A stretch of 60,983 nucleotides of DNA, filler included, from Dimargaris cristalligena (Eukaryota), in NCBI GenBank assembly GCA_003614675.1. It is 14 parts of 14 records of this genome, joined end to end, with 100 filler letters (N's around TTAATTAATTAA, not from the genome) between each part and the next. Parts side by side here need not be neighbours in the genome. Positions count along the whole stretch, not along the records: positions 34,996 to 39,250 come from ML003810.1; 13 more parts are not named here. One strand, 5' to 3'. How positions within the stretch are numbered: the stretch's first letter is position 1; each line of letters begins with the position of its first letter. A program made the position numbers and the translations under genes. The notes beneath the pieces were generated by a model. That model saw only the letters and a program-made list of their open reading frames with translations, was not told the DNA's origin and ran no database searches. Shown here piece after piece: positions 35,153 through 36,589 of the stretch.

Positions 35153-36589
35153 TTAATACCAACGGTGGTTGTTAGAGCCAAAGCTGCTGCCACCATTACC
35201 GCCATCACCTCCGTTACCGCCGTCACCACCGCTGCCGCTGCCCCAGCTGTTTCCACCGTTACCACCATCACCGCCGTTACCGCCATTGCCGCCGTTTCCG
35301 CTGCCGTTGCCGTACCAGTCGTTGTGGTTGTTGTTGTAGCGACGGCGGCCGTAGTAGTAATCGTCGTTGTCATTGTACCCGAATCCACGGCGGAAATGGC
35401 CAGTAGAGCTTCCAGCGTTACCACCATTACCACCATCACCACCATCACCACCATCACCTCCGGAACCGCGACCGCTAGCATTGCCACCGTTTCCGCCATT
35501 ACCGCCGTCACCACCGTTGCCCCCGGATCCGCCCCAGTTGCGGTTGTTGTTGTTCCAGTGGCGGTGGGAAGAGGGCCGGCTGTGGGACCAGCTGCTGTTA
35601 CCGCCGTTCCCGCCATTACCACCATCACCACCGTCGCCACCATTGCCGCGACCGCTGGCGTTGCCACCGTTACCACCGTCACCGCCATCGCCGCCATTAC
35701 CAGAGCTGGAGCGGCGGTGGGGACCGCGTGAAGTATTGCCGCCGTTTCCGCCGTTACCACCATCACCGCCGTTGCCACCGCTACCCTTGCCCCAGCTGTT
35801 ACCACCGTTACCGCCATTGCCACCGTCACCGCCGTTGCCCCCGGATCCGCTCCAGTGGGAACCGCTGTTGTGGCTGTTCCAGTTCCAGCTACGGCCTTGA
35901 TCATGGTGACCGTTTCCGTTGCGATGGGGAGCGGGATGGCCACCGCGAACGGATCCACCATTACCACCGTTACCACCATCACCGCCGTTGCCGCCATTCC
36001 CCTTGCCCTTGGCGTTACCGCCGTTACCACCGTTGCCGCCATCACCGCCGTTTCCGGCATTGGCCTTGCCGCTGGTGTTGCCACCATTGCCGCCGTTACC
36101 ACCATCGCCACCGTTACCACCGTTGCCCTTTCCGCTGGCGTTACCGCCGTTGCCACCATTACCTCCGTCACCACCGTTACCGGAGCCTGACCGGCGGTGG
36201 GGGCCGCGGACGACGCTACCGGCATTACCACCGTTTCCGCCGTTACCACCATCACCACCATTTCCCTTGCCCTTGGCATTGCCACCGTTACCTCCATTGC
36301 CACCATTACCGCCGTTGCCGCCAGTGGCGACGGGCGCACGGGATGGGCCGGGGACAACGACTACTTTGCCGCCGTTACCACCGTTACCGCCATTACCGCC
36401 ATCGCCGCCGTTACCCTTGCCTTTGGCGTTACCGCCGTTACCGCCATTGCCTCCGTCACCACCGTTTCCGGTAGTGGTGGCACGGCGCTCAGGCTGAGCG
36501 ATGGACCCGTCAGCGGGGAGAGCTGAGGCCTGGATTTGGGAGGCCGCGAGGGTGGCCACGAGAGCAGCGATTCCGACGTTGACCTTCAT
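35153..36589 (-). CDS. Secreted Gly/Asn-rich (GGN/GGD) repeat protein
   Basis: Signal peptide [23 protein letters not shown] and pro-region ending ERR. 16 blocks of about 5 GG[N/D] triplets. AACATG start context; TATAAATA about 380 bp upstream on the minus strand. Confidence 0.9.

Follow-up and report, generated by a model that had tools for sequence, protein, structure and literature searches.

Bundles of glycine-rich helices of the polyproline-II/polyglycine-II (PPII/PGII) type belong to a rare class of folds that has been recognised recently. According to a 2023 paper, the two-layer, free-standing form is known from Collembola alone, whose antifreeze proteins are described as placing consecutive helices in opposite layers (PMC10235112). 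The large sandwiches of mycobacterial PGRS domains are described from predictions only (PMC9436101; PMC13243192); these "sail" models combine acidic faces with two unlike edges, one straight with short, regular, Phe/Trp-rich loops and the other irregular with variable loops (PMC9436101). Among peptides, (Pro-Gly-Gly)n and (Ala-Gly-Gly)n are reported to assemble into PPII sheets of two layers that carry the non-Gly residue on the outside (bioRxiv 10.1101/2023.11.25.568672). Here we describe a gene found in a window of 60,983 nucleotides (the whole stretch of DNA analysed) from the fungus Dimargaris cristalligena (GCA_003614675.1). It encodes a protein of 478 amino acids built around 16 paired runs of Gly-Gly-Asn/Asp triplets, hereafter the GGN protein. 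We read it as a secreted two-layer PGII/PPII sandwich whose faces display Asn/Asp and which binds through a single edge that bears the loops, a tentative reading that falls somewhat short of an even chance.

We take the open reading frame (ORF) to be a genuine gene, restricted to its lineage, of a mycoparasitic fungus of the Dimargaris type; both the gene and its repeat architecture are firm. That GGX runs form PPII bundles was already known. New features are the origin in a fungus, a strict hairpin unit, faces that are purely Asn/Asp and a gradient in loop composition.

The GGN gene and its paired repeat

An initial annotation of the DNA had described a cysteine-free, secreted protein of strictly paired glycine modules, joined by short turns within pairs and by longer linkers, several of them dibasic, between pairs. 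We recovered the ORF at exactly the same coordinates on the minus strand, running from ATG to TAA over 478 residues (Table 1) with no internal stop. Its product contains 196 Gly, 83 Asn, 41 Ser and 26 Asp (41% Gly and 17% Asn), only three residues each of Leu, Ile and Phe, and no Cys among the 478 positions. The N-terminus is the sole hydrophobic segment, with a Kyte-Doolittle 11-mer maximum of 2.42 at residue 5 and values of at most 0.74 beyond residue 30, and it reads as a putative signal peptide, the cleavage site of which was placed by eye. Together with the polar C-terminal tail, these features suggest a soluble secreted product of ∼41 kDa with an isoelectric point of ∼9.6. A secreted architecture of paired modules thus appears to hold, with a single N-terminal hydrophobic segment and eight hairpin units. 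All five annotated RR sites were located (PERR in the head, PHRR twice, HFRR and GRRR), and the protein has no KR or KK site.

After a 40-residue head, the GGN protein consists of 16 runs of the form G-[N/S]-(GG[N/D])n, each of 14 to 18 residues (mean 16, standard deviation 1.46). The gaps between successive runs measure 4/14/4/14/4/7/4/34/4/11/4/21/4/39/4 residues, a perfect alternation of short and long that divides the runs into eight pairs, with 4-residue turns inside the pairs and loops of 7 to 39 residues between them, so the strict pairing of 16 modules was confirmed. This order is one of 6435 possible orders of eight short and seven long gaps, a figure that defines the repeat unit and does not count independent events, because the array clearly grew by duplication of the pair unit. 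All 90 non-Gly residues are in register and none of the 16 runs slips phase. These outward residues comprise 62 Asn, 20 Asp, 7 Ser and a single Lys, with no Ala. In 2000 composition-preserving shuffles of the mature sequence we obtained at most one run of (GG[ND])≥3, against the 16 observed. The eight turns (AKGK three times, ASGR twice, and ASGK, SWGK and SWGS once each) all fit the motif [A/S]-x-G-[K/R/S], in which the Gly is invariant; Trp occurs in only two of them. Among the turns listed in the initial annotation, AKGK, ASGK and ASGR were found as given, whereas SWGKGS proved to be two separate turns, SWGK and SWGS.

The loops change in composition along the chain. Loops 1 to 3 are rich in Val, Pro, Ala and Ser and hold no Trp, no Tyr and one His, whereas loops 4 to 7 and the tail are rich in Trp, His, Tyr, Asn and Arg, with 8 Trp, 7 Tyr and 13 His, in agreement with the enrichment towards the C-terminus noted at the outset. 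Over all loops and the tail, the totals reach 19 Arg, 14 His, 8 Trp and 7 Tyr. A pattern search found a G/R-P-x-R-[R/A/H] core common to four of the seven loops, and degenerate forms of this core could be recognised by eye in loops 4 and 7. The shared core suggests a common ancestral loop, or an ancestral unit made of a hairpin plus an RR site.

The dibasic sites raise the question of a precursor, in which cleavage by Kex2 at the five RR sites would set free peptides that are rich in glycine and comprise one to three hairpins, together with a Tyr/Asp-rich 16-mer, for signalling or antifungal use. We consider this quite unlikely. The GGN protein does share with Kex2-processed repeat proteins, or KEPs, a signal peptide, as far as hydropathy fits one, a repeated motif and RR sites. 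Cutting at these sites would give six fragments, where the first filter of the KEP pipeline is described as at least four (PMC6339444), and Zoopagomycota are reported as the phylum richest in KEPs (PMC7329392). The three large fragments, which hold two, three and two hairpins, share the repeat, and the core present in four of the seven loops hints at the ancestral hairpin-plus-RR unit mentioned above. However, the RR sites do not bound each repeat as they do in KEPs: they delimit groups of two, three, two and one hairpins, and the dibasic pair is lost from three of the seven loops. The resulting fragments are long and unequal, and products of 60 to 160 residues far exceed typical KEP peptides. 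Moreover, nicks in the loops of a folded sandwich need not release anything, and would be compatible with the sandwich that we propose. Kex2 processing, as put forward by the initial annotation, may occur at the five sites, but these flank groups of hairpins and not each repeat.

To follow the history of the array, we compared the eight hairpin units with one another, over 96 nt each, in a codon-position test. The first, second and third codon positions showed 109, 59 and 461 differences between units and 9, 4 and 31 variable columns of 32, respectively. Mean identity among the units was 77% for DNA and 85% for protein. At codons for the same residue, third-position identity was 0.507, where the codon usage of the gene gives chance values of 0.39 for Gly, 0.60 for Asn and 0.51 for Asp. 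In addition, run lengths are held within one triplet of 14 or 17 residues. Saturation at synonymous sites, combined with a residue pattern that has been kept, indicates that the units are old and that selection maintains the repeat pattern of the protein.

Proposed fold and its closest counterparts

In a GGX run with three residues per turn, the X residues all fall on one face, which leaves two all-Gly faces for backbone-to-backbone packing. We propose that the 16 in-register (Gly-Gly-Asn/Asp)5-6 runs would form left-handed PGII/PPII helices with three residues per turn, ∼45 to 55 Å long (14 to 18 residues at 3.1 Å), once the signal peptide and possibly also the 13-residue propeptide that ends in PERR have been removed. 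The [A/S]-x-G-[K/R/S] turns would pair these helices into eight antiparallel hairpins, which would pack as a flat two-layer sandwich with Gly inward and hydrogen bonds from backbone to backbone. By analogy with the springtail antifreeze proteins, each hairpin would bridge both layers, giving 8 + 8 helices. The broad faces would be Asn ladders with one to three Asp per helix. If such a sandwich of hairpins forms, its topology puts the eight short basic turns together along one edge and the seven variable loops along the other. Seven N-x-S/T sequons are present, at residues 150, 171, 285, 310, 331, 370 and 428, of which six coincide with the Asn that closes a GGN run; sugars at these sequons, if they are glycosylated, would sit at helix ends and line both edges of the proposed sandwich.

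The glycine sandwich would thereby act as a rigid scaffold, and the loop edge, which is rich in Arg, His, Trp, Tyr and Asn with an enrichment that grows along the chain towards the C-terminus, as the working surface. Such a composition is typical of carbohydrate- or surface-binding sites. The loop edge would most likely bind a polysaccharide or a cell-surface ligand, either in attachment to the host fungus or in the wall of the fungus itself, which has to fasten onto other fungi and enter them; the identity of the ligand is a guess. Kex2 could nick the RR sites in the exposed loops without dismantling the sandwich, or release pieces of one to three hairpins. We give the sandwich fold about an even chance. 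The fuller version, namely a free-standing 16-helix, two-layer PGII sandwich that arose independently in an early-diverging fungus and binds the host wall through its faces and its loop edge, is rather doubtful.

Predictors based on ESM returned defined models. The ESM Atlas contains the GGN protein letter for letter, with a predicted template modelling score (pTM) of 0.54 and a mean pLDDT (predicted local distance difference test) of 0.57. The nearest model to this one was that of a PE_PGRS cluster, 94% of whose members carry PF21526, with a template modelling (TM) score of 0.77 by query over 404 aligned residues, and three actinobacterial clusters labelled "hypothetical" also resembled it (TM 0.62 to 0.70). 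Furthermore, we docked the two halves of the protein, residues 37 to 214 and 247 to 478, against each other with ESMFold2. The N-terminal half reached a pLDDT of 77 (74 to 75 beside unrelated partners) and the C-terminal half a pLDDT of 63 (54 beside an unrelated chain). The interface score ipSAE was 0.39, 0.39 and 0.38, where the best of 3 controls gave 0.00, and the runs agreed in at least 88% of contacts with a partner pLDDT of at least 63; the verdict of the tool was "weak support". Of 78 solved complexes, 51 attain the mark applied by the tool, as do 2 of 108 mismatched pairs; in its eukaryote calibration, 39 of 65 solved pairs without a like older complex and 2 of 126 unrelated pairs attain it; passes with scores of at most 0.60 comprise 5 of the 78 solved complexes and all 4 passing mismatches (of 180). 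Since both chains were taken from a single repeat protein, their likeness, and not a specific packing, may account for the pass. We regard the fold confidences obtained in this job as more telling than the docking score.

The PGRS domains (PF21526) of the PE_PGRS proteins resemble the GGN protein in being long arrays of in-register GGX runs joined by loops. In predicted layouts, both have a short-turn edge, a variable-loop edge and acidic faces (PMC9436101), and neither has an experimental structure. The GGN protein differs from the PE_PGRS proteins in several respects: it has no PF21526 or PE match at E values up to 10 and no GRPLI string, it carries a Sec-type hydrophobic leader in place of type VII (ESX-5) secretion, and its outward residues are Asn/Asp, whereas those of PGRS are Ala or mixed. 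With the GGN protein coming from a fungus, the resemblance is almost certainly convergent.

The collembolan antifreeze proteins are free-standing and secreted and consist of antiparallel, Gly-rich, three-residue-repeat helices in two layers (PMC10235112), a description that the GGN protein would share if it folds as we propose. Its helices would be longer and more numerous, with 5 to 6 triplets and n = 16, against 3 to 4 triplets and n = 6 to 13, and its alternate loops are long (7 to 39 residues), whereas collembolan loops are short. It has no Ala-rich ice face, no disulfides and no sequence match to a PDB chain. These points bear on whether the protein might be an ice-, mineral- or Ca2+-binding surface protein whose Asn/Asp ladders order water or bind cations, which we hold to be extremely unlikely. 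The RTX nonapeptide has the form GGXGXDXUX, where U is hydrophobic. GGNGGD strings of the GGN protein fit its first six positions, the runs contain 20 Asp, and a two-layer PPII bundle is the collembolan antifreeze fold (PMC10235112). Yet position 8 of the nonapeptide is Gly in these strings and Pfam gave no calcium-binding repeat at E values up to 10, so that we rejected an RTX-type Ca2+-binding beta-roll. Collembolan faces are Ala-rich with an alternation of hydrophobic and hydrophilic character, whereas all 16 runs here display Asn, Asp, Ser or Lys, and no Cys is available for disulfides. Nothing ties this dung-dwelling mycoparasite to cold, a link for which no search was made. Ice binding, which had been raised in the initial annotation, is accordingly unlikely for a protein with outward Asn/Asp/Ser residues and no flat Ala-rich face.

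More distant parallels exist. In phage S16 gp38, a glycine-rich helix lattice displays hypervariable receptor-binding loops at one end (PMC6851490), much as we propose for the GGN protein, but this domain has 73 residues and 10 short helices in three layers, is inserted in a beta-helix on the tail fibre, and is without sequence similarity to the GGN protein. The (Pro-Gly-Gly)n and (Ala-Gly-Gly)n peptides have the same X-Gly-Gly chemistry but form intermolecular, homopolymeric assemblies and not a single chain with turns and loops. A glycosylphosphatidylinositol (GPI)-anchored wall protein of Sclerotinia, described as a series of identical 11-residue glycine-rich minisatellite units plus a GPI anchor (PMC10269696), follows a different design.

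Relatives and counterevidence

To place the GGN protein among known sequences, we searched several collections. Neither Pfam (E values up to 10) nor NCBIfam gave a family, and PDB sequences gave no match at E values up to 10 with either the single protein or a two-hairpin profile. Of 8000 candidates scored in a word-indexed search of 5.8 billion proteins near the query length, 3 had E ≤ 1e-3, all of them unrelated proteins that contain GGN-type stretches; the lowest E value, 6.3e-5, belonged to P0002, which was rejected as a relative, with a BLASTP E value of 0.28. An exhaustive phmmer search of 1.84 billion representatives yielded 12 matches at E ≤ 1e-3 and none at 1e-10, and we rejected all 12 as unrelated: they have stretches of the GGN type, and several are beta-helix-like. 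Likewise, an eight-hairpin profile run against longer proteins gave five matches at E ≤ 10, all unrelated proteins with GGN-type stretches. Scans of metagenome contig DNA and, with the hairpin profile, of prokaryote genomes returned 131 and 621 pattern stretches, respectively, none of which was confirmed. The search for paralogues suggested by the initial annotation found none in the other 13 contigs of the window. Composition corrections soften all of these negative results, and the word-based ones rest on the 8000 scored candidates.

The top match of the hairpin profile was P0015, a 506-residue protein from outside the window (E 8.9e-5; hhalign probability 91.5). It contains nine uniform 12-residue GGX runs separated by turns of 5 to 6 residues of the V-I-G-S-G-R type, and the parts that flank these runs show Pro-rich segments and a weak match to a PAN domain. 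P0015 may be an independent instance of the same design principle.

In the open-access literature, supplements aside, we found no fungal PPII/PGII bundle and no GGN architecture of hairpin pairs, although the supplementary tables on KEPs might list one; the string "fung" has 0 occurrences in a 2026 survey of PPII-prone proteins (PMC13243192). The suggestion that the protein had not been described before is in line with this literature and with the lack of Pfam, NCBIfam and PDB-sequence matches.

Several results weigh against the sandwich. AlphaFold2, which had been expected to show antiparallel PPII hairpins, gave no confident model in two tries. The full-length protein, modelled as a single sequence without an alignment, had a mean pLDDT of 32.8 and a pTM of 0.14, and hairpins 3 and 4, modelled with three other two-hairpin segments as alignment rows, had a pLDDT of 34.6; Foldseek found no PDB match with the model of hairpins 3 and 4. 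The confidence of the Atlas model is moderate, and its structural match to PE_PGRS pairs one prediction with another. The calibration of the docking tool itself ranks the pass as weak, and the PPII conformation is deduced from structural neighbours and precedent. Furthermore, the short turns of the GGN protein are basic or small (A/S/K/R/G), whereas those of PGRS are hydrophobic and Phe/Trp-rich. The structure predictors therefore disagree, with AlphaFold2 on one side and the ESM-based methods on the other. Polyglycine sandwiches are described as hard to predict (PMC6851490), and for this reason we do not take the low confidence of AlphaFold2 on an orphan sequence as disorder. For the PPII-hairpin array first proposed, the phase-pure uniform runs, the conserved turns, the PE_PGRS-like Atlas model and ESMFold2 argue in favour, but AlphaFold2 does not.

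If the AlphaFold2 values (pLDDT 33 to 35) did reflect disorder, the protein could be an adhesive of the "stickers-and-spacers" kind, with GGN spacers and loop Arg, His, Trp and Tyr as stickers, which would coacervate and age to a glue, for example on the appressorium or on spores. We judge this unlikely, although the composition (41% Gly, 17% Asn) and the concentration of Arg, Trp, Tyr, His and Phe in periodically placed loops fit it. The tick cement glycine-rich protein (GRP), which is also secreted and Gly-rich with periodic Arg and aromatic residues, is reported to phase-separate through cation-pi and pi-pi contacts of these residues into adhesive condensates (PMC11794139). Dimargaritales are described as haustorial parasites of fungi that attach to their hosts by appressorium and haustorium (PMC9866270). 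However, spacers need no fixed length or register, yet the runs keep to 14 to 18 residues with no slip in any of the 16, and a single turn motif persists despite synonymous saturation; length-matched, phase-pure Gly runs and a conserved turn also set the GGN protein apart from the tick GRP. In addition, loops 1 to 3 are nearly without stickers, and the ESM-based predictors give defined PGRS-like models with moderate confidence.

The remaining points on the negative side concern the gene itself. They could indicate that the ORF is non-functional, being either a repeat tract that is open by chance and unexpressed or the reverse side of a selected product encoded in the antisense Pro-rich frame, which we consider very unlikely. 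The exact sequence of the GGN protein is absent from a collection of 15 billion proteins. Since this collection includes the annotated proteins of the Dimargaris source fungus and of four relatives, public annotation there did not call the GGN gene. No orthologue of the predicted gene, nor any other homologue, appeared in any of the libraries or DNA scans that we used. Its genomic context is nil, the contig being small (4255 bp), isolated and without any other gene, and composition is the sole evidence for the Dimargaris origin of this contig: its non-coding tetranucleotide profile correlates with those of the other contigs at a mean r of 0.46, within the 0.32 to 0.60 that the others show themselves, and the Arg codons (CGC/CGT, no AGA/AGG) and Gly codons (GGT/GGC) of the GGN gene match those of other genes of the window.

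Nor does the codon-position test decide between the GGN frame and the antisense Pro-rich one, as the synonymous fraction was 0.71 in the former, 0.69 in the latter and at most 0.13 in the other four frames. The antisense frame has a similar signal because GGN codons and the antisense CCN codons share their wobble base; codon-position tests can in general be misled in this way when applied to repeats of the GGN type. On the plus strand, positions 35157 to 36497 read as a proline-rich PPL/PPS/PPF repeat. We rejected an antisense Pro-rich protein, since this frame has 8 stops and one Met over the span, whereas the GGN frame is open and has an ATG and a hydrophobic leader. Indeed, 478 stop-free codons with an ATG, a hydrophobic leader and non-repetitive hydrophilic loops are unlikely to arise by chance, and the residue pattern has been kept while synonymous sites between units became saturated.

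Source contigs and implications

The window consists of 14 contigs of ∼4.25 kb each, arranged in descending order of length and joined via N44-TTAATTAATTAA-N44 spacers, the positions of which include 4297-4396, 8691-8790 and 13076-13175. Adjoining "genes" in the window are therefore not genome neighbours. ORFs that enter the spacers, such as those at 7541-8746, 16362-17495 and 52352-52957, are partly artefacts. The GGN gene lies on the ninth contig (34996-39250, 4255 bases), of which it is the sole long ORF; Pfam gave no family for seven of the longer stop-to-stop frames located upstream of the gene on the same contig. A TATAAATATA string occurs on the gene strand at about 36964-36973, ∼375 nt upstream of the start codon. 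This string and the microsatellite listed in Table 1 are candidates that may represent promoter (core) or leader elements.

The other contigs encode an ArAE_2_N transporter, a Ty3/gypsy integrase with a chromodomain, and Sad1/UNC, PPR, Ofd1, C2 and Las1 proteins or domains. The Ty3/gypsy-type element is a fragment of a retrotransposon pol at 9308-11152 (plus strand), comprising the end of an RNase H, the zinc finger and core of an integrase, a Tf2-type SH3 domain and a chromodomain. On the eighth contig, a 555-codon ORF at 31726-33393 (minus strand) encodes an Ofd1/Tpa1-like 2-oxoglutarate prolyl hydroxylase. Over 99% of its length, this ORF shares 95% identity with a public Dimargaris model of 520 amino acids, which probably drops a short intron or starts later, and its next matches, in Tieghemiomyces, D. 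xerosporica, Dispira and D. verticillata, are 53 to 57% identical.

Table 1. Features of the GGN gene and its upstream region, with positions counted along the whole window and residues along the 478-residue protein
Feature	Residues	Position	Strand	Description
Whole coding sequence	1-478	35153..36589	-	478 codons, ATG to TAA; stop at 35153-35155; intron unnecessary
Putative signal peptide	1-23	36521..36589	-	Lys2, hydrophobic core 5-15, A21-S22-A23 small-x-small motif
Possible propeptide	24-36	36482..36520	-	13 residues, ends in PERR; dibasic site 35-36; putative cleavage
Hairpin 1	41-75	36365..36469	-	runs of 14 + 17, turn AKGK
Loop 1	76-89	36323..36364	-	degenerate PGPSRA motif
Hairpin 2	90-122	36224..36322	-	runs of 15 + 14, turn AKGK
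Loop 2	123-136	36182..36223	-	RR site
Hairpin 3	137-171	36077..36181	-	runs of 14 + 17, turn ASGK
Loop 3	172-178	36056..36076	-	TSGKANA, shortest inter-pair loop
Hairpin 4	179-213	35951..36055	-	runs of 14 + 17, turn AKGK
Loop 4	214-247	35849..35950	-	34 residues, H/W/N/S-rich
Hairpin 5	248-285	35735..35848	-	runs of 17 + 17, turn SWGK
Loop 5	286-296	35702..35734	-	RR site; homologous to loop 2
Hairpin 6	297-331	35597..35701	-	runs of 14 + 17, turn ASGR
Loop 6	332-352	35534..35596	-	21 residues, W/H/N/S/R-rich
Hairpin 7	353-391	35417..35533	-	runs of 18 + 17, turn ASGR
Loop 7	392-430	35300..35416	-	39 residues, Y/N/D/R/W-rich; HFRR and GRRR
Hairpin 8	431-468	35186..35299	-	runs of 17 + 17, turn SWGS
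C-terminal tail		35156..35185	-	10 residues, polar, without GPI-type or membrane-anchor signal
CT/AG-rich microsatellite		36679..36734		Tandem Repeats Finder (TRF) period 2 and 10; 90-145 nt upstream of ATG

Were the GGN protein a disordered glue or a peptide precursor, its interest would be lower but still real. If the sandwich reading is true, the PPII/PGII fold would have been reached repeatedly from simple GGX repeats, and the GGN protein would provide a eukaryotic equivalent to the mycobacterial PGRS "sail" and to the springtail antifreeze bundles. Its regular, cysteine-free hairpin unit, which depends on neither a membrane nor a dedicated secretion system, would make it a tractable and easily expressed model for a large PGII sandwich, of which there is as yet no solved example of this size. 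For the little-studied mycoparasite lineage to which Dimargaris belongs, it would represent a secreted protein of a new type, acting at the surface or in adhesion.

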